DNA of 64,000 nt from Escherichia phage vB_EcoM_P54: the sequence record PV390658.1; one strand, given 5' to 3'. The position numbers were made by a program, and so were the translations under genes. Below are positions 1,900 to 63,666 of this stretch, in pieces; within the stretch, counting starts at the first letter, position 1, and each line of letters begins with the position of its first letter. Below the pieces are notes generated by a model. It ran no database searches. It saw nothing but the letters and a program-made list of their open reading frames with translations, and was not told where the DNA came from.

Positions 1900-2106
1900 T
1901 TAAATCTTTTTAGAAAACTTCGAAAAGAGTTCTCTTAGTTTTTCAGTGATGCCTAACTGTATCTCTAATATTTCAAAGATAACCCATATTAGCATGGCTC
2001 CAAACAATGAACCTTGTTCAAAATCAGCAAATAGGTTAATAACAAGCATACCAATCACAATAACTGGTGCATCAACAACCAAACCTTCCCAAAGGCGTTT
2101 AAGCAT
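1900..2106 (-). CDS. small hydrophobic protein (68 aa), hypothetical
   Basis: ORF track 1900..2106; hydrophobic segment VVDAPVIVIGMLVINLF; sits between NrdH-like gene and nrdD. Confidence 0.35.
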   Translation of the reverse strand: MLKRLWEGLVVDAPVIVIGMLVINLFADFEQGSLFGAMLIWVIFEILEIQLGITEKLRELFSKFSKKI

Positions 2107-3723: not shown

Positions 3724-5958
3724 CTAAACACCACAACCCTCGCAATAAGCATCTTGCAGTGCAGATTTACCTACACCAATGCGGCTGTTGAGATAGTACA
3801 TGGTTTTCATACCTACTGAGTTGGCATAAATCATATACTTCAAAGCTTGAGCCAATGATACCTTCTTAGCTTTTGCGTAGTCAACATAGAAATCTGAAGA
3901 GATAGCTTGACCAGTGAACTTTTGAACAATTGCATAACAATCAATCAGGTCAAAGGTGTCAATATCCCAAGCAATTTCATAGACATACTTCAACTCTTCA
4001 TAATCTGGAACAATAAACAGTACGTTACCAGTTGCAGACTTTTTAGTTAAAATAAAGTCACGAATTGGATACAAGCCATTTGTCGTATTAGTTGCCAGTG
4101 AAGAACTCTCATTAGGCATGTAAGCTTCTAATACAGAGTTACGGATTCCACCATTTTCTTTAATACGTTGTGCTAAGTCATCCCAATCATAACGAAGTTT
4201 TGCATCATGCTTCTCATCAATCTTCCTGTTAGCTGTCTTCGGAGGAACCCAACCTTCAGGATACTTAGTGAACTGCATATACTCAGGTACACCACGTTCT
4301 TTAGCAAGTCTTAAAGAAGCTTCGTGTAAGTAGTAAGAGTGCATTTCAGCAAGCTCATGAAGCTTCGTCTTACCTGCTCTTGAAGAATAGTTCACGTAAT
4401 TTTTTGCAAGGTAATGAGCCACATTTGTAAGGCCAATACCAACAGAACGACGCTTCTGAACATGGTTGCGCATCGACGGATACGGATAATCCATAAGGTC
4501 AATAACGGAGTCAACCATTGCAAGAGCATAATAAGCAACGTCAGCGTATTCATCTTCTGAAATTCTCCCTGCAACCAAACTAGCTAGGAAGCAAAGAGCT
4601 ACCTCACCATCCTCTTTCACAGCATCATCTCTGTAAAGGTCTGTCTCTTTCTCAAAGCCGTACACTGGCAACACAATTTCCATACAAAGATTTGACATCT
4701 TCAAAGGTTCTTTAAATGGTGTATGTGTGTTTGCATTATTTGTGAAGAATGGGTACACACGTCCTGTTGCATAACGCTGCTGGATAAACAGTTTAGCAAT
4801 TTCACGAGCCTTCACCCGTCTGTGCTTCACACCTGAATGCACTGCATGACCAACTGCCATAGCAAACTCATCAGCAGATGCTGTGTAGAACATGTCATAG
4901 AGTTTTGGTGCATCCTTGTAAGAGAATAGCAACCAGTCTGTATCATATTGAACACACTGCCAGAAATAATCATTTGTACCAAATGAGTAGTCCATCTCGT
5001 TAATACGTTTCGAAGGAACCGTTGTAGGGTGCTTCAAACGCAGTAAATCTTCAATCTGCGGGTCTAGAGCGGTGTAGAAGTTGTTAGCTGAACCACCACG
5101 GCTCTTTTGTTTGTTTGCCTCTACAGATGAACGTACAAGCTTGTAATAAGGTAGTTTACCCATATGCTCAATAGTATTTTGACGGATACCATCACCAATA
5201 GTGCGAGTCTCCATCAGCATCCCAATACCAGCTTGCTTTGTAGTCATATCATAAGCAACCTTTGCAGCAATACCTAGAGATTCAGCAGTATCATTCGCCT
5301 TAATCAAACAGCATGACGCATAACCTGATTTAGTAGCTCTTAAACCATTCAGATAAGGCGTAGGAGCATTAATCTTAAGGTCAGATAGGTAAGTGTATAG
5401 CTTGATAACATCTTGCAGTCTACGGTGCTTTGGTTGCTTCTCAAAGGCTTTCATAGCCATACCCATAAACATAAACTGTGGTGACTCAAAAAGTCTTCCC
5501 GTTTTAATATCACGGATACCATACTTGTCTCTGAACTGTTTCAGGACTGCATAACCATAAGAGATATCTTTTGAGTGCACAATGTATCCTTGCAGGTATT
5601 CAAGCTCTTCCTGAGAATAGTCCATCTTCTCCCAAAGTCCTGCTCTCTCCATATTTTTAACGAAGGTAACCAGCGTAGGAACCTTAGTAAAGCCTCCAAA
5701 GGCTTCTTTGTAGATAATCCCTAGAAGTAGCCGTCCAGCCATGTCTGAGTACTCTTGAGTTTGTTTATCAACACAAACATCAATCATAGCTTGGTGCATC
5801 TCTTTTGTAGTGCAACCTTCATAGACACGTTTCATGGCTTCCATAGTGACTTCTGACCAAATAATACCACGCTTATCTGCCCATGATGCCCACTTATTCA
5901 GTCTTTCTGGGTCAAAGCTTACTACTGTACCGTTTGATTTTTTAATTGTCTTAATCAT
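3724..5958 (-). CDS. nrdA: ribonucleotide reductase class Ia alpha subunit
   Basis: 744 aa; N-terminal ATP-cone (IKKSNGTVVSFDPERL), SNLCMEIVLP region, C-terminal redox tail CEGCGV. Confidence 0.9.
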   Translation of the reverse strand: MIKTIKKSNGTVVSFDPERLNKWASWADKRGIIWSEVTMEAMKRVYEGCTTKEMHQAMIDVCVDKQTQEYSDMAGRLLLGIIYKEAFGGFTKVPTLVTFVKNMERAGLWEKMDYSQEELEYLQGYIVHSKDISYGYAVLKQFRDKYGIRDIKTGRLFESPQFMFMGMAMKAFEKQPKHRRLQDVIKLYTYLSDLKINAPTPYLNGLRATKSGYASCCLIKANDTAESLGIAAKVAYDMTTKQAGIGMLMETRTIGDGIRQNTIEHMGKLPYYKLVRSSVEANKQKSRGGSANNFYTALDPQIEDLLRLKHPTTVPSKRINEMDYSFGTNDYFWQCVQYDTDWLLFSYKDAPKLYDMFYTASADEFAMAVGHAVHSGVKHRRVKAREIAKLFIQQRYATGRVYPFFTNNANTHTPFKEPLKMSNLCMEIVLPVYGFEKETDLYRDDAVKEDGEVALCFLASLVAGRISEDEYADVAYYALAMVDSVIDLMDYPYPSMRNHVQKRRSVGIGLTNVAHYLAKNYVNYSSRAGKTKLHELAEMHSYYLHEASLRLAKERGVPEYMQFTKYPEGWVPPKTANRKIDEKHDAKLRYDWDDLAQRIKENGGIRNSVLEAYMPNESSSLATNTTNGLYPIRDFILTKKSATGNVLFIVPDYEELKYVYEIAWDIDTFDLIDCYAIVQKFTGQAISSDFYVDYAKAKKVSLAQALKYMIYANSVGMKTMYYLNSRIGVGKSALQDAYCEGCGV

Positions 5959-18605: not shown

Positions 18606-18842
18606 ATGTGGAAATCAGTAATTGTGCTTGGTGTTATTTTTCTAGCTGGCTGCAACCCTTCTTATGAAGATAAAAATGCTTCTTATAGCCTCCCACCAGA
18701 GATGCAAGATTGCAAAGTCTATAAGTTGCATGGTGATGCCATAAGTAGAGATATTGTTGTTGTCAGATGTCCAAACTCTCAAACAACAACATCTTATAGT
18801 TATGGAAAAAATGGTCAATCACACACTACGGTTATTGAGTGA
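18606..18842 (+). CDS. putative lipoprotein (78 aa)
   Basis: Signal peptide MWKSVIVLGVIFLAGC with lipobox LAGC. Confidence 0.5.
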   Translation: MWKSVIVLGVIFLAGCNPSYEDKNASYSLPPEMQDCKVYKLHGDAISRDIVVVRCPNSQTTTSYSYGKNGQSHTTVIE

Positions 18843-25853: not shown

Positions 25854-26225
25854 TTACTTTTCAGTATTCTTTGTGTTCTTTTCAGTAATAGCTTGGAGGG
25901 CTGATACTGATTGAGCCAGATTGTTCACACTATCAGAGAATTTATCAAGAGTCTTAGTAAGTTTTGCGTTCTCACCCTTAACATTCTCTAACTGGACTTT
26001 CTGGTTCTCCATCCCTAGCTGAAGCAGCCTCATATCAGACTGTAAATCACGAATAGCTGAATAATTACTTTTGGAATAATTATCTAACTGCTGTAACTTT
26101 GTTGTGATAGACACTTCTTGCTTACCATCCGAGACTTGCATGGTGGTATACATCCCAATAACACTAAAAATACCAACTACAATTGCACCAATATTATTTT
26201 TAAAAGCTTCCTCTAGCCACTTCAT
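25854..26225 (-). CDS. membrane-anchored coiled-coil protein (123 aa), hypothetical
   Basis: N-terminal TM helix IGAIVVGIFSVIGMY followed by heptad-rich sequence; function unknown. Confidence 0.4.
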   Translation of the reverse strand: MKWLEEAFKNNIGAIVVGIFSVIGMYTTMQVSDGKQEVSITTKLQQLDNYSKSNYSAIRDLQSDMRLLQLGMENQKVQLENVKGENAKLTKTLDKFSDSVNNLAQSVSALQAITEKNTKNTEK

Positions 26226-26419
26226 TTATTCTCCCCCTTAAAAGCTTTTTCTAAGTTATCTACGAACTCATCATCAATAGGTGTGTCTGTTTTACTCGCA
26301 AGGTATCTTGCAAGCCTAAAGAACACTTTCTCAATCATGTATTCACTTAGAAGGGATAAAATGAGTTTCCAGAAGAAGCTACCTAGATTTTTTAGAAGAA
26401 TTGCTAGGATTGTAGGCAT
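26222..26419 (-). CDS. small membrane protein (65 aa), hypothetical
   Basis: Hydrophobic N-terminus ILAILLKNLGSFFWKLILSLL. Confidence 0.35.
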   Translation of the reverse strand: MPTILAILLKNLGSFFWKLILSLLSEYMIEKVFFRLARYLASKTDTPIDDEFVDNLEKAFKGENK

Positions 26420-42590: not shown

Positions 42591-43697
42591 TCAGCCACCT
42601 TTGGCGTCAGCGCGAACATCTACCAGCAACTGAGGACGAGTACAGTATGGCAGCATGTAAGAGTGAGCTTCGAAGTCAATACCTTCGTCACGGTCTTTTT
42701 CGTATTCGAATACGTACAGTTCCTGACCAAGTGTATTTGCATAACCCATCTTAGGACATGGACCATATGCCACTTCGAAGATGTTGTTTGCTTCACCCAG
42801 CATAGAGACGTTAGGGAAGGCATGACCAACACCAACAGTGTCTGCTACGCTGTCAATGCTCACCAGAGTGTGAACCTTACCACGCTTGTCTTTGAACTTA
42901 CCATTGTACTGGACAAACTTAACACCACCGTAGTAGAAGGTGTTCATATGAGCCTGAACGCCGTCAGTGCCACCAGTTCTCAGAGAACCAGTAATCTGTT
43001 GCCAAGCCAGTGGAGTCTGCTGTGCAAGATAAGCGTCACGAATCTTAGGATGTTTAACCAGCTTGCTGAAGAATACACGGTCAACAACTACGTGAATTTC
43101 TTCACCGTTGATTACAGTGCCGGTCTTAGCTTCGTCTTCCATGTGCATACGCAGTTCTTCAATAGAAGCGTCGATGTCAGCATTAGGGTTGTCAAGGTCG
43201 AAGTAAATAGTCTTCTTCTCAACGTCGAACTGCTTGTACAGGTCAGCGTACAGAGTACCACGAGCATCAACAACTTTACCCTTCAGAGCTTGCATAAACA
43301 GGAACTCACGAGTAATATCGAACTTGGTACGAATCTTCATCAGCTTCTTAGCACGTACTACAGCTTCAGTAGTAAGCTCGTTTGCAGTGCCTGGCTGACG
43401 TACACCCTGAATTTCATCAGGAGTGATGCTTTCAACTTCTTTGAAGTACATCATTGGGAAGCTGATTTGACGAACACGCTCAGGTGCGCTAGTCTCTGCC
43501 TTACGGCTATCACGGTCTACCGCATCAAGCAAGCTAACATCCCAATCAGTCAAGTCCATAAGGAAAGTAGTTTGGGTGATTGGTGCTGAACGGAACAGAC
43601 CTAAGTTGGAAATATACCCATAAGTATTTGGGATAGACTGGACTTCACCAGTCAGGTCAGCAAGGAAAAATCTGCTTTTTTCAGAGTTAGTCAACAT
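42591..43697 (-). CDS. major capsid protein
   Basis: 368 aa; gene order decoration-capsid after the protease as in lambda-type head modules; strong codon usage. Confidence 0.6.
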   Translation of the reverse strand: MLTNSEKSRFFLADLTGEVQSIPNTYGYISNLGLFRSAPITQTTFLMDLTDWDVSLLDAVDRDSRKAETSAPERVRQISFPMMYFKEVESITPDEIQGVRQPGTANELTTEAVVRAKKLMKIRTKFDITREFLFMQALKGKVVDARGTLYADLYKQFDVEKKTIYFDLDNPNADIDASIEELRMHMEDEAKTGTVINGEEIHVVVDRVFFSKLVKHPKIRDAYLAQQTPLAWQQITGSLRTGGTDGVQAHMNTFYYGGVKFVQYNGKFKDKRGKVHTLVSIDSVADTVGVGHAFPNVSMLGEANNIFEVAYGPCPKMGYANTLGQELYVFEYEKDRDEGIDFEAHSYMLPYCTRPQLLVDVRADAKGG

Positions 43698-55655: not shown

Positions 55656-57071
55656 TTACCAGATGTAACGGTCAATCATTACTGCTTTGAGCATTACGCT
55701 GATTGGGTCAAACTTCTCACCACCAAGCAGAGCTTTTAAAGTGGCTGGAGAGAACCCTGATACCATTGCTACACCATTATCCTTAACAGACACTTCGCAA
55801 GTGCCATTACGGTTTGCTAAGTACCAGAATACTAGTTGTGGCATTTCGTATCCAGCTTTTTTGTACTTACTCTGAATTGCTTCAAAGTTTGTACGACCAT
55901 TTGCACCATCAACCTGATTGAACTCCATATCAGAGAAGATAATAAGCTTACTTGGCATATCTTTCTGAGTCAAGTTGTTTCGCTTACCTACCTCAAGAAT
56001 ACGGTCAAAAGCTGCTTGTAAGTTAGTTGAACCATACTCAACATGACGCATAACCTGACGATGACGGTTTCGTAAATCACCACTCAGTTCAATGAAATGA
56101 GGGTTTGTTGAATATACCATTAACTCATCTTTAAAGCAACCTGTATTGCGTTCTGCTACATACAAGGCAAGGGATACACCAATATCAAGGGCAGTGATTG
56201 AACCAAGATTCACCCAAGACATTGAACTTGAAACATCAGTCATACATAAGATGTTTTCACCCTCTGCCATCCAGTTTGGAAGTGCTTTCCACTGCTCGTT
56301 AGCGACATCTGCATTACCATACTTAATAGATTTAATCACATCGTATGGGTAAACAGCACCAGCGTTAATCTTAGCCTCACCTTTTGAGAGTGACTCGATG
56401 TAAGCTTTGTAACGTTCCCCATCTTTACGGTTAAAGAGTTTTTGGTAACGTGCAGCAGCGAGTGAAGGAACCTTGCTGTAGTCAATCTTACCAAACTCAT
56501 TAGCAGAGATTTTTTGCTCAACCGTATCAGACAGTGCAGATAACAGTGTGCGATACTCCTTCTCGCTTAAGTTTGCAAACTTACAGAAACGTTTTACAAA
56601 CTGTTTATGGCGTGGTTTTACTCGTGGCAACCACTTAGCTGCTAAACCCGCTGTTGCAGGGTCTAGTAACGCTGCTTCTAAATGTTTGAAGGCATCTGTC
56701 TCAAAGCGAGTACCTACGAAGATTTTGAAGTCATCAAAACGACCAAGTTCTGCAATCTTATCCATAATGCGAAGAACCTGTGTAGGTTCTAAAACCTTAT
56801 CTTCAATCGCTTGAAGTAAAACAGTTCGGAAAGCTTTACGCTCACCCATACCTTCTCGTACATCTCGCATATGCAGTAAAATACGAACTGCAACATCAAC
56901 ATCCTCACGCAAAGCTTTGTAGAACAAGTCTGGTAAGATTTCTACATTGCTACGGCTTGAGCCAGCAGCTTTGTAAAAGTCTACAAGAGCAGACATTGAT
57001 GAAGTATGGTTTACAGCACCATTTTCAGTTCGACCTGCATGAAGGTGCGCATGTTTAAATAACTCGCTCAT
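55656..57071 (-). CDS. vWA (MIDAS) domain protein with helical N-terminal domain; possibly DUF2828/TROVE(Ro60)-like
   Basis: 471 aa; MIDAS-like CMTDVSSSMS followed by hydrophobic strands and LIIFSDMEF; N-terminal ~270 aa helical; immediately upstream of and co-oriented with the tRNA cluster. Family assignment is inference. Confidence 0.55.
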   Translation of the reverse strand: MSELFKHAHLHAGRTENGAVNHTSSMSALVDFYKAAGSSRSNVEILPDLFYKALREDVDVAVRILLHMRDVREGMGERKAFRTVLLQAIEDKVLEPTQVLRIMDKIAELGRFDDFKIFVGTRFETDAFKHLEAALLDPATAGLAAKWLPRVKPRHKQFVKRFCKFANLSEKEYRTLLSALSDTVEQKISANEFGKIDYSKVPSLAAARYQKLFNRKDGERYKAYIESLSKGEAKINAGAVYPYDVIKSIKYGNADVANEQWKALPNWMAEGENILCMTDVSSSMSWVNLGSITALDIGVSLALYVAERNTGCFKDELMVYSTNPHFIELSGDLRNRHRQVMRHVEYGSTNLQAAFDRILEVGKRNNLTQKDMPSKLIIFSDMEFNQVDGANGRTNFEAIQSKYKKAGYEMPQLVFWYLANRNGTCEVSVKDNGVAMVSGFSPATLKALLGGEKFDPISVMLKAVMIDRYIW

Positions 57072-58734: not shown

Positions 58735-58925
58735 GTATAAACAGGGGCTAATGCCCCTTTAATTGTTTATAAGTACACGCCATAAGGTAAAAGTGTAAAA
58801 GACTTTATTGCTCCCACAACTACACATCAATTCCGTGAAAATAGTGAAGTGCGTCATTGTTGGTGATGTGTCCCACTACATAAAGTTTATTTGAGATTAA
58901 ACGCACATTTAGAGGATAAAAAGAA

Positions 58926-59810
58926 ATGATTAAAGCAAAGACTTACCCAGACTTCAAAGAGTTTGTAAAAGGTTTTGTTGCAAACGTAAAGGCTGGTAAG
59001 AGATATGATTTTAGAACATATCAAGAGGCTATTTTACCACTTACCTATAGTTCGTATTGGCCTGAAGCTGACATTGCAGAAGTTAAGAAGTTTGACTACA
59101 AACCAGCCTATAAAGTCCCATTTAGTGATGAACTCCTTTACAGTGTTGGTGCACAGATGAGAACTGCTGATTTCTTCATGGATTTACAGTATGCAATCAT
59201 CAACGGTAAAGATGTTGACACAATTTACTGTGAATGGCTGGCAAGAGTTAAACCTTTCTCAATGCTGAATGCTAAGTTGAAAGATGCCATCACACCACCA
59301 TCAATCACTCAGCAGCCAACAAACCAAACAGTCAATGAAGGTGGAACACTTACTCTGAGTGTTATTGCGTCTAACGCCACTGGATATCAGTGGAAGAAGG
59401 ATGGTGATGACATCCCTAGTGCCACTTCTGCAACTTACACAAAACAATCCGTAGCACCTTCTGATGCTGGTTCTTATACTTGTGTTGTGTCTGGAGAGGC
59501 TGGTACAAGCGTTACCTCAGATGCAGCAACAGTTACTGTCAACGCACTACCTGTGATTACACAGCAACCTTCTGGTCAGACTATCAATGAGGGTGGAGAC
59601 ATCAACTTGGTAGTGGCTGCAACAGGTGCAACAGGTTATCAGTGGAAGAAAGATGGCTCTGACATCCCTTCAGCTACAAATGCTACCTATAGCAAGTCTG
59701 GTGCTCTACAAGCAGATACAGGAAGCTACACCTGTGTAGTTACTGGTGCAGGTGGCTCTGTAACATCTAATGCGGCAACAGTTACAGTTAACCCAGCAGG
59801 GGAGGCATAA
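58926..59810 (+). CDS. protein with two tandem Ig-like domains
   Basis: 294 aa; two ~86 aa repeats each with ATGYQWKKDG(D/S)DIPSAT and GSYTCVV, an I-set/Ig-like signature; stop overlaps the endolysin start. Confidence 0.55.
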   Translation: MIKAKTYPDFKEFVKGFVANVKAGKRYDFRTYQEAILPLTYSSYWPEADIAEVKKFDYKPAYKVPFSDELLYSVGAQMRTADFFMDLQYAIINGKDVDTIYCEWLARVKPFSMLNAKLKDAITPPSITQQPTNQTVNEGGTLTLSVIASNATGYQWKKDGDDIPSATSATYTKQSVAPSDAGSYTCVVSGEAGTSVTSDAATVTVNALPVITQQPSGQTINEGGDINLVVAATGATGYQWKKDGSDIPSATNATYSKSGALQADTGSYTCVVTGAGGSVTSNAATVTVNPAGEA

Positions 59811-60274
59811 TGCAACTCTCAAGAAAAGGTTTAGAAGCTATTAAGTTCTTCGAAGGTCTGAAGTTAGAGGCTTACGAAGACTCTGCCGGAATCCCGACAA
59901 TCGGGTATGGTACAATCCGTATTGACGGAAAACCTGTTAAGATGGGTATGAAAATTACTGCTGAACAAGCTGAACAGTATCTTCTTGCAGATGTTGAGAA
60001 GTTTGTTGCAGCAGTGAACAAAGCTATCAAGGTTCCAACTTCTCAGAATGAGTTCGATGCACTTGTAAGTGAAACATACAACATCGGTATCACAGCTATG
60101 CAGGATTCTACATTTATCAAGCGCCACAACGCTGGTAACAAGGTAGGTTGTGCAGAAGCTATGCAGTGGTGGAACAAGGTTACAGTCAAAGGTAAGAAGG
60201 TCACTTCAAACGGCTTGAAAAACAGACGCAGAATGGAAGCTGACATTTATCTTGACAGTGCATACCCAAAGTAA
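59810..60274 (+). CDS. endolysin, GH24 lysozyme family
   Basis: 154 aa; N-terminal LEAIKFFEGLKLEAYEDSAGIPTIGYGT matches the catalytic signature of lambda R / T4 e type lysozymes. Confidence 0.75.
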   Translation: MQLSRKGLEAIKFFEGLKLEAYEDSAGIPTIGYGTIRIDGKPVKMGMKITAEQAEQYLLADVEKFVAAVNKAIKVPTSQNEFDALVSETYNIGITAMQDSTFIKRHNAGNKVGCAEAMQWWNKVTVKGKKVTSNGLKNRRRMEADIYLDSAYPK

Positions 60275-60284
60275 TATCTTCATA

Positions 60285-60309
60285 GGCTCCTTCGGGAGCC
60301 TTTTTATTT
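60285..60309 (+). terminator. rho-independent terminator after the endolysin gene
   Basis: GGCTCC-ttcg-GGAGCC hairpin followed by TTTTTATTTT. Confidence 0.7.
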
Positions 60310-60324
60310 TCTAAGGAGAAAACT

Positions 60325-60723
60325 ATGAAGCTTTGGGCTAGTGACTTTGGGACTTTTAAGTACACTCGTAATGGTTCACTTGTACGCATCATTGGAAGTA
60401 ACATTGTTACAGTTGGTGATAGGGTGCATACAATGTTCACTGTTGAGTTGGTTGAACTCTCACCTATTGAGGCTGCTAATAACGGTTTATTCAAGTTTGA
60501 AACTTATCATGTAAATGAACATGGGCAGTTTAATACTCTAGGTGAAAGTGGTCTCGATATTATTTCAGAGAACCCATTGACAAGAGAGCAGCTTGCAGGT
60601 TACTATAAAACCATTCTTGAAAGAACTTTGGCGACACATGAACATGAAGCCAGATATCACATCGAACGGTGTGAAGTTCTAAAAGCAAAAATCGAACAAG
60701 CAGAGAGAGGTTTTTATGAATAA
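60325..60723 (+). CDS. hypothetical protein (132 aa)
   Basis: AAGGAGA RBS. Confidence 0.45.
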   Translation: MKLWASDFGTFKYTRNGSLVRIIGSNIVTVGDRVHTMFTVELVELSPIEAANNGLFKFETYHVNEHGQFNTLGESGLDIISENPLTREQLAGYYKTILERTLATHEHEARYHIERCEVLKAKIEQAERGFYE

Positions 60724-61123
60724 AGATGTTAGAGATATCCAAGTAAAGGTGGACACATTCGGTCATGATGGTCGAGAAGACATTGGTTTTGCCGACGCAG
60801 TAATATTCAAGTGTAACGGAGATTTATTCCTTCGTTTTACAGGGTCTGGAAGCACCCTTCATAGAATGCGAGATGATGAAGATGGCTGCCCTGTATTTGG
60901 TTGGTTTGACAGGGAGTTCCCTCTCTACGCAATCCACTACCCAGATGGTGGTGAAGACTGGACAACCCAATCAATCTTTGATGAGCTTAATGGTGTCCCA
61001 GTTGAGCAAGAAGAAGAAGAAGAGGAAGAACCTGTTGAACTCACCTTCACTTTTATCAAAGAAGAGAAAGTAGGTGAATTGTCCGTAACTGAAGCAATTC
61101 AAGTCTCACAGGTTATTCGTTAA
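60716..61123 (+). CDS. hypothetical protein (135 aa) with poly-Glu stretch
   Basis: ORF track; EQEEEEEEEP run. Confidence 0.45.
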   Translation: MNKDVRDIQVKVDTFGHDGREDIGFADAVIFKCNGDLFLRFTGSGSTLHRMRDDEDGCPVFGWFDREFPLYAIHYPDGGEDWTTQSIFDELNGVPVEQEEEEEEEPVELTFTFIKEEKVGELSVTEAIQVSQVIR

Positions 61124-62951: not shown

Positions 62952-63166
62952 AAAAGCTAACTACAGTTGAAGATTACTACAAGCTGTCTCTACTAGAACA
63001 GTATCGTAGAAGTCAGAACATCAGAAAATGCTATGGTAGACACGCTGAAGGTGATTTTTACCATTGTTACGATGCGGATTTAAAAGGTGTAACACCTAGA
63101 GGGAAAGTCCTGCAAAGACTTGTTGACCTTGAGTGGAACAAACGATTGAGAGGGGTTGGAAAATGA
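62948..63166 (+). CDS. hypothetical protein (72 aa)
   Basis: ORF track. Confidence 0.4.
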   Translation: MKKLTTVEDYYKLSLLEQYRRSQNIRKCYGRHAEGDFYHCYDADLKGVTPRGKVLQRLVDLEWNKRLRGVGK

Positions 63167-63666
63167 TTTATGAAGAAAGATACAAAATAGACTATCAAGA
63201 TACTCGTCATCACACTTCTTTGAGAGTAACCAAACCAAATGGAGATACCGGTATTATAGCACATTTTGGTGGTGATTATTGGTACGGTACAGGTTGCTTT
63301 GAAGGCTACAATAAAGAATACTTGAAAGCCTTCTACAGAGACTTTACAAATGACTACAACAGGGTTGTTGACGAAAAGAATAAGTGCATTAAGCATGAAC
63401 ACCGTGCCAGAGGTTGTCTAAGTATTGTCATGGTACTGGCATTTTTCCTAGCAACATTACTGGCAGTATCAGCAATCAGTTCCATAGCTCAAGACTTAAC
63501 CATTACACAGATTACTGCAAAGGTATATGATGTTTGGTACTTGTATGCTGTTCCTTTAGTTGGTATCATCATCTCACTAATGAGATTCAGAGTTCATAAG
63601 AAACGACTTAAGGACTCTGAGGTTAAACTTGAAGAGGTAAGTAAAGAATGCAACCTACAATTATAG
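63163..63666 (+). CDS. membrane protein (~167 aa)
   Basis: Two hydrophobic helices (LSIVMVLAFFLATLLAVSAI; YLYAVPLVGIIISL); start set at ATG 63163 overlapping the upstream stop. Confidence 0.45.
   Translation: MIYEERYKIDYQDTRHHTSLRVTKPNGDTGIIAHFGGDYWYGTGCFEGYNKEYLKAFYRDFTNDYNRVVDEKNKCIKHEHRARGCLSIVMVLAFFLATLLAVSAISSIAQDLTITQITAKVYDVWYLYAVPLVGIIISLMRFRVHKKRLKDSEVKLEEVSKECNLQL

Follow-up and report, generated by a model that had tools for sequence, protein, structure and literature searches.

The identity, capsid location and architecture of the protein treated here have been known since 2025 from work on phages Sf14 and Bas63, and its presence in virions has been known since 2010 from phage Felix O1. 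In the capsid of Escherichia phage Bas63 (JohannRWettstein; PDB 9NCF), chain S is Hex-Dec, the product of bas63_0124 (Sci Adv 2025, PMC12609058). [quoted passage not shown] According to the same study, more than 10 kb separate the gene from the structural module, and the number of Ig domains among relatives ranges from one to four (PMC12609058). In the capsid of Shigella phage Sf14, a Mooglevirus, chain S of the structure (PDB 9C2D) is gp20, which was also detected in particles by mass spectrometry (Commun Biol 2025, PMC11821841). [quoted passage not shown] In both phages the Ig domains are flexible and point away from the capsid surface. Felix O1 Gp36, whose gene directly adjoins that of the lysin gp35, was identified by mass spectrometry in CsCl-purified virions (Felix O1 paper, 2010). 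In the same phage, RT-PCR placed the maximum of ORF36 and ORF37 at 60 min, late in infection, and that of the lysin ORF35 at 25 min.

The stretch of DNA analysed here, which we call the window, comprises 64,000 nucleotides of Escherichia phage vB_EcoM_P54 (PV390658.1) and is a Felixounavirus genome (Felix O1-like myophage; Ounavirinae). At the nucleotide level, the 2.7-kb stretch around the gene pair of interest is up to 93% identical to sequences in 251 phage records, almost all from Felixounavirus phages that infect Escherichia, Salmonella, Shigella and Citrobacter. The minus strand carries the head and tail genes at about 26.5–49.4 kb of the window, including the MCP gene at 42591–43697 (minus strand). 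The gene under study is found on the plus strand at 58.9 kb, about 15 kb from the capsid gene and outside the structural module. Between the structural region and this gene lies 55656–57071 (minus strand), which encodes a 471-aa DUF2828/DUF7788 vWA-type protein with the PHROG label 'RNA-binding protein'. It is transcribed divergently from the Hex-Dec/endolysin block, and in relatives a tRNA cluster adjoins it.

The gene itself, at 58926–59810 on the plus strand, starts with ATG and encodes 294 amino acids. The original prediction had seen in this ORF an N-terminal domain plus two Ig-like repeats in front of a GH24 endolysin, and both the ORFs and Pfam agree. Specifically, Pfam finds two Ig stretches over approximately residues 124–290 (Ig_3, E 1.1e-22; Ig_2, 1.3e-16; I-set, 5e-16), the first corresponding to Ig-like domain 1 (residues 124–207, 59295–59546, plus strand; Ig_3/I-set/Ig_2) and the second to Ig-like domain 2 (residues 208–291, 59547–59798, plus strand). 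The end coordinate then given for the protein, 60274, is the end of the endolysin and not of the Ig protein. The two repeats are identical at 57 of 82 amino acids, and at the DNA level they are 74–78% identical in register with a spacing of 249–252 nt, far above chance. Residues 1–123 (58926–59294, plus strand) matched no Pfam family and had been described as a domain of unknown function. That description is superseded: the fold is the CapBD, solved by cryo-EM in the Bas63 and Sf14 homologues.

The evidence for this assignment comes from several comparisons. In a phmmer search against the PDB the best matches were 9NCF_S (E 1e-241) and 9C2D_S (E 2e-157; also 9C3A chain S), aligned from residue 1 and spanning both the CapBD and the Ig domains, and the 294-aa protein also matches PHROG 3995 over its full length. 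It is 92% identical to the Bas63 Hex-Dec over 289 aa, with 115 of 122 CapBD residues identical, and 90.8% identical to Felix O1 Gp36. The two contact arginines of Sf14, R79 and R107, are both kept within the CapBD, and the MCP, which is nearly identical to 9NCF_A (E 3e-248), has D at residue 221 in the alignment to the Bas63 MCP. By every feature that sequence can test, the protein is a member of the Hex-Dec/gp20 family of the Ounavirinae, and it is very probably the Felixounavirus hexamer decoration protein (Hex-Dec, Hoc-like), the neighbour of an independent endolysin in a two-gene arrangement. Identity of about 92–94% and the conserved contacts point to the capsid as its location. An AF2 single-sequence model gave the Ig domains as beta-sandwiches (pLDDT about 90) and the CapBD at low confidence (pLDDT 30–55), and we therefore assign the CapBD fold from identity to the solved structures.

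As a hexamer decoration protein, Hex-Dec would be made late in infection. Its N-terminal CapBD of about 120 aa would bind in monomeric form at the centres of the pentamer-proximal (quasi-3-fold) hexamers of a T=9 capsid, held there by predicted salt bridges that its Arg79 and Arg107 form with Asp221 of the MCP. The two C-terminal Ig-like domains would stick out from the head, forming a short, flexible fibre. Such a fibre would probably let the phage stick weakly to glycans, to host surfaces or to other particles, a speculative role that follows what has been proposed for T4 Hoc.

The likeness to T4 Hoc is one of arrangement, with a monomer at the hexamer centres and an Ig-like string projecting from the head. 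However, Hoc binds the capsid through its C-terminal domain, whereas in Hex-Dec it is the Ig domains that are C-terminal, the order being reversed. The PHROG Hoc-like families match only residues ∼121–292 of Hex-Dec, that is, the Ig region. Compared with Hoc, the Hex-Dec CapBD is larger, pseudo-C2-symmetric and of distinct topology, with minimal sequence similarity (PMC12609058). Hex-Dec is an analogue of T4 Hoc and not a member of the Hoc family. [quoted passage not shown] In searches of the PDB and of phage records, T5-like decoration proteins matched over the Ig region only and none over the CapBD.

Within the subfamily the number of Ig domains varies from one phage to the next: there is one in HMD-P8 (210 aa), two in the window, Felix O1, EF202P1, KPS64 and FGS030 (294 aa), three in Sf14 (372 aa) and BPS17W1 (377 aa), and four in Bas63 (460 aa). 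The Bas63 Hex-Dec is an orthologue whose gene likewise immediately precedes that of the endolysin and meets it in an identical TAATG junction; it differs from the protein of the window in having four Ig-like domains in place of two. Felix O1 Gp36 has the same length, the same two Ig domains and the same overlap with the lysin gp35; its old tail-protein annotation is wrong. Sf14 gp20 shares the homologous CapBD, the Ig string and the conserved R79/R107–D221 contacts, and carries three Ig domains against the two of the window. The order Hex-Dec then endolysin is common to Felix O1, Bas63, BPS17W1, EF202P1, HMD-P8, KPS64 and SunLIRen, and the adjacency is kept in three genera, Felixounavirus, Mooglevirus and Kolesnikvirus. 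In SunLIRen, an Erwinia phage of the genus Kolesnikvirus, a CapBD-like N-terminus with 33% identity (locus L004, 2941–3555) is fused to Big_2 and not to an I-set Ig, which fits a modular decoration protein made of an anchor plus any Ig-like fibre. With its N-terminal anchor and variable Ig number, Hex-Dec is a natural display scaffold.

The second gene of the pair, at 59810–60274 on the plus strand, encodes a GH24 T4-lysozyme-like endolysin of 154 aa (Pfam PF00959, Phage_lysozyme, E 6.6e-41). It shares 98.7% of its residues with Felix O1 gp35 and has the E15/D24/T30 triad. The protein is soluble, no signal or SAR sequence having been found in it. Against LysF1 of phage FAHEc1 (PDB 7M5I) the match has an E-value of 3.8e-98, with about 150 of 154 residues identical (∼97%). 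LysF1 is a monomer in solution and on its own lyses chloroform-permeabilised E. coli. Since LysF1 is active alone as a monomer, the near-identical endolysin of the window should need no accessory protein and would act as an independent soluble GH24 muramidase. The gene pair would be a compact unit between terminators, and its 1-nt overlap ordinary phage gene packing.

The junction between the two genes reads GGGGAGGCATAATGCAA, with the stop codon TAA at 59808–59810 and the start codon ATG at 59810–59812 sharing one base, so the TAATG overlap that had been predicted is there. The further claim, that the genes are translationally coupled, stands only as far as this overlap; coupling was deduced from a feature that is the default junction of this genome. 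In a simple greedy gene set for the window, 15 of 73 same-strand junctions have a 1-nt overlap, which makes it the commonest type, and 30 of 73 have an overlap of 1–11 nt. The endolysin has a Shine–Dalgarno sequence of its own, GGGGAGG, within the last Hex-Dec codons (59799–59805, plus strand) and 4 nt before the ATG, and independent initiation is therefore likely. In the window, and likewise in the five Felixounavirus loci whose junctions were compared, TAATG is preceded by a conserved GGAGG-type motif. Outside this genus the adjacency is conserved across the subfamily, but the overlap and the coupling signal are not. In the Mooglevirus KPS64, whose gp94 (two Ig domains) is 77% identical to Hex-Dec, the overlap is lost and 2 nt lie between the stop and the start of the lysin gene, and in the Kolesnikvirus SunLIRen a 49-nt spacer with a GC-rich stem-loop and a T-run (L004, 3540–3612) lies between the genes.

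Predicted intrinsic terminators were found on both sides of the pair, which suggests a two-gene unit. The upstream one, at about 58743–58768 (plus strand), has a 6-bp GC-rich stem, conserved in relatives, and a T-rich tail; the downstream one, just after the endolysin at about 60284–60311 (plus strand), has a 7-bp stem AGGCTCC/GGAGCCT and TTTTTATTTT. A sigma-70 promoter scan gave nothing between the upstream terminator and the Hex-Dec start codon, and overall it returned fewer sites in the window than in shuffles (5 versus 9.9). Because of this null result upstream and the shortage of sites relative to shuffles, the scan is uninformative on the transcription of the pair.

Alternatively, the decoration protein could belong to a functional 'very late' unit, in which the decoration of expanded, packaged heads is deliberately co-timed with lysis, or in which translation of Hex-Dec gates translation of the lysin and thereby sets the time of lysis. 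The bracketing of the pair by predicted terminators fits this idea, as does the embedding of the lysin Shine–Dalgarno sequence in the Hex-Dec coding sequence, and the synteny is kept in three genera even though about 15 kb and a change of strand separate the pair from the other head genes. However, neither the spacing nor the coupling signal is conserved outside Felixounavirus, overlaps are generic in the window, and the strong Shine–Dalgarno sequence of the lysin makes independent initiation likely. The different RT-PCR maxima of ORF35 and ORF36 in Felix O1 also speak against a common timing. We consider a functional unit of this kind unlikely.

A further idea involves a gene that the window has lost. 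In relatives, a 123-aa gene (Felix O1 ORF37, bas63_0125, phrog_4463) is located directly upstream of Hex-Dec and overlaps its start by 4 nt. The product is a stand-alone CapBD paralogue: it is identical to the Hex-Dec CapBD at about 35% of amino acids, with a reciprocal PHROG cross-match at E 2e-15, and is without Ig domains. Of 252 related records, 233 carry the gene intact. Both Bas63 and Felix O1 keep it, unlike the window, where alignments to EF202P1, BPS17W1 and HMD-P8 reveal only a remnant at 58781–58925 (plus strand); the intact copies used for comparison are at 4683–5054 of locus L002, 5683–6054 of L001 and 8037–8408 of L007. This pseudogene retains ∼65 nt of the 5′ end, with indels and without the start codon, and ∼75 nt of the 3′ end, while ∼225 nt have been deleted. 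The other 19 of the 252 records are without a near-full-length copy, and the three listed, FGS030, EcF-vB and Tf, match only the last 74 nt, like the window. The Felix O1 counterpart, Gp37, is transcribed late and is absent from the virion proteins detected by mass spectrometry (Felix O1 paper), and term searches of the cryo-EM papers on Bas63 and Sf14 gave no mention of the paralogue (PMC12609058, PMC11821841). A stand-alone CapBD could cap hexamer centres or compete for them, and so tune the number of Ig fibres per head. Separately, head decoration might be genuinely linked in time to lysis through the conserved order of Hex-Dec and endolysin. Both readings strike us as decidedly improbable. 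If the paralogue does tune decoration, then the phage of the window would be a natural knockout, and the loss of the gene raises a small question about how ounavirus heads are decorated.

The original prediction also allowed for Hex-Dec being an accessory of the endolysin that targets the cell wall or LPS, produced at a fixed ratio through translational coupling and helping the lysin to find its substrate. Ig-like domains can bind carbohydrate, and this general knowledge is in line with such a role, as are the 1-nt stop/start overlap conserved in all Felixounavirus loci examined and the endolysin adjacency conserved in Mooglevirus and Kolesnikvirus. However, the N-terminal domain is a capsid-binding domain in the cryo-EM density of two relatives (PMC12609058, PMC11821841), and LysF1, the near-twin of this endolysin, acts by itself on chloroform-treated cells. 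Hex-Dec has no signal sequence, and it is a separate ORF with its own stop, not fused to the catalytic domain. The number of Ig domains ranges from one to four beside a near-invariant lysin, the overlap has disappeared in KPS64 and a stem-loop with a T-run separates the genes in SunLIRen, 1-nt overlaps are found throughout the window, and in Felix O1 ORF36 peaks at 60 min against 25 min for the lysin. A role as lysin accessory is thus largely refuted already and very hard to credit; Hex-Dec is not a component of a lysis cassette. The other possibility that had been raised, a decoration protein with no more than an operon in common with the lysin, is the correct one, as has been shown on close homologues by cryo-EM (Bas63 and Sf14) and by mass spectrometry of virions (Sf14 and Felix O1). 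The checks proposed with the original prediction, virion proteomics and structure, exist already for these homologues and reveal a capsid decoration protein. The observation of the gene pair is therefore genuine but commonplace, of little weight as a discovery, and it shows no special link to lysis.

The weakest alternative, to which we give next to no credence, is a tail protein, for instance one that decorates the tail tube or sheath and carries Ig domains in the manner of lambda gpV-C. In its favour, 'tail protein' is the label of many records and of PHROG 3995, the PHROG 'major tail protein' families match the Ig region and the Felix O1 paper named Gp36 the 'major tail protein'. Against it, the matches to tail families are limited to the Ig domains, which are promiscuous, the homologue is seen by cryo-EM on the hexamers of the capsid, the Bas63 authors call the tail annotation, found in most genomes, incorrect (PMC12609058), and in Sf14 genes other than gp20 account for the tail tube and the sheath (Table 1, PMC11821841). 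The practical value of identifying Hex-Dec as a capsid decoration protein lies here, in that most records and PHROG 3995 say tail protein for what should be labelled 'Hoc-like hexamer decoration protein'.

The neighbouring small membrane proteins were scanned as well, and the predicted absence of an adjacent holin-like gene was confirmed. A hydrophobicity scan found no holin beside the endolysin and no transmembrane (TM) segment in family-matching neighbour ORFs within about 2.8 kb, and combined hydrophobicity and lipobox scans gave neither a holin nor a spanin adjacent to the lysin. The Felix O1 paper reports the same absence of an adjacent holin, and Kongari et al. (2018) list Felix O1 with an overlapped two-component spanin. 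The nearest ORFs that have both a predicted TM segment and a phage-family match are at 63133–63666, 51199–51756, 25854–26225 and 1900–2106.

The ORF at 25854–26225 (minus strand, 123 aa) is the counterpart of a gene labelled 'holin' in many relatives and follows the tail-fibre gene at a distance of about 33 kb from the endolysin. The protein has one N-terminal TM segment and then a long helical, predicted coiled-coil-like C-terminal part, a topology that makes it at least as much a candidate i-spanin as a candidate holin. It is preceded by a 65-aa ORF with a hydrophobic N-terminus (26222–26419, minus strand), and a 30-aa ORF with an LLGC lipobox-like motif (26084–26176, minus strand) is embedded in it. 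The region 25854–26419 is possibly a lysis cluster away from the endolysin. Among the small genes downstream of the DNA polymerase, a 78-aa ORF at 18606–18842 (plus strand) has a textbook lipoprotein signal (MWKSVIVLGVIFLAGC...). Its product had no match in Pfam and is a candidate for an o-spanin or for a superinfection-exclusion lipoprotein. The ORF at 1900–2106 (minus strand, 68 aa, phrog_4532), which adjoins the glutaredoxin gene, encodes a protein with a class II holin-like topology: its C-terminus is charged, and two TM segments are predicted in it. In relatives its annotation is only 'membrane protein'.

Downstream of the endolysin, 60716–61123 (plus strand) encodes an acidic protein of 135 aa whose orthologues in several relatives are named 'D-alanyl-D-alanine carboxypeptidase'. 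This label is unsupported, since no Pfam domain is found and PHROG 4348 is without function, and it has probably been propagated from record to record. Because Pfam gives no support for a carboxypeptidase, we rejected this gene as evidence of a lysis cluster.

Finally, one of the records related to this DNA is that of Staphylococcus phage SA1 (GU169904.1, 147 kb), which is 96.7–98.7% identical to this Felixounavirus DNA in two separate regions. It probably contains Felix O1-like sequence through a chimeric or mixed assembly.
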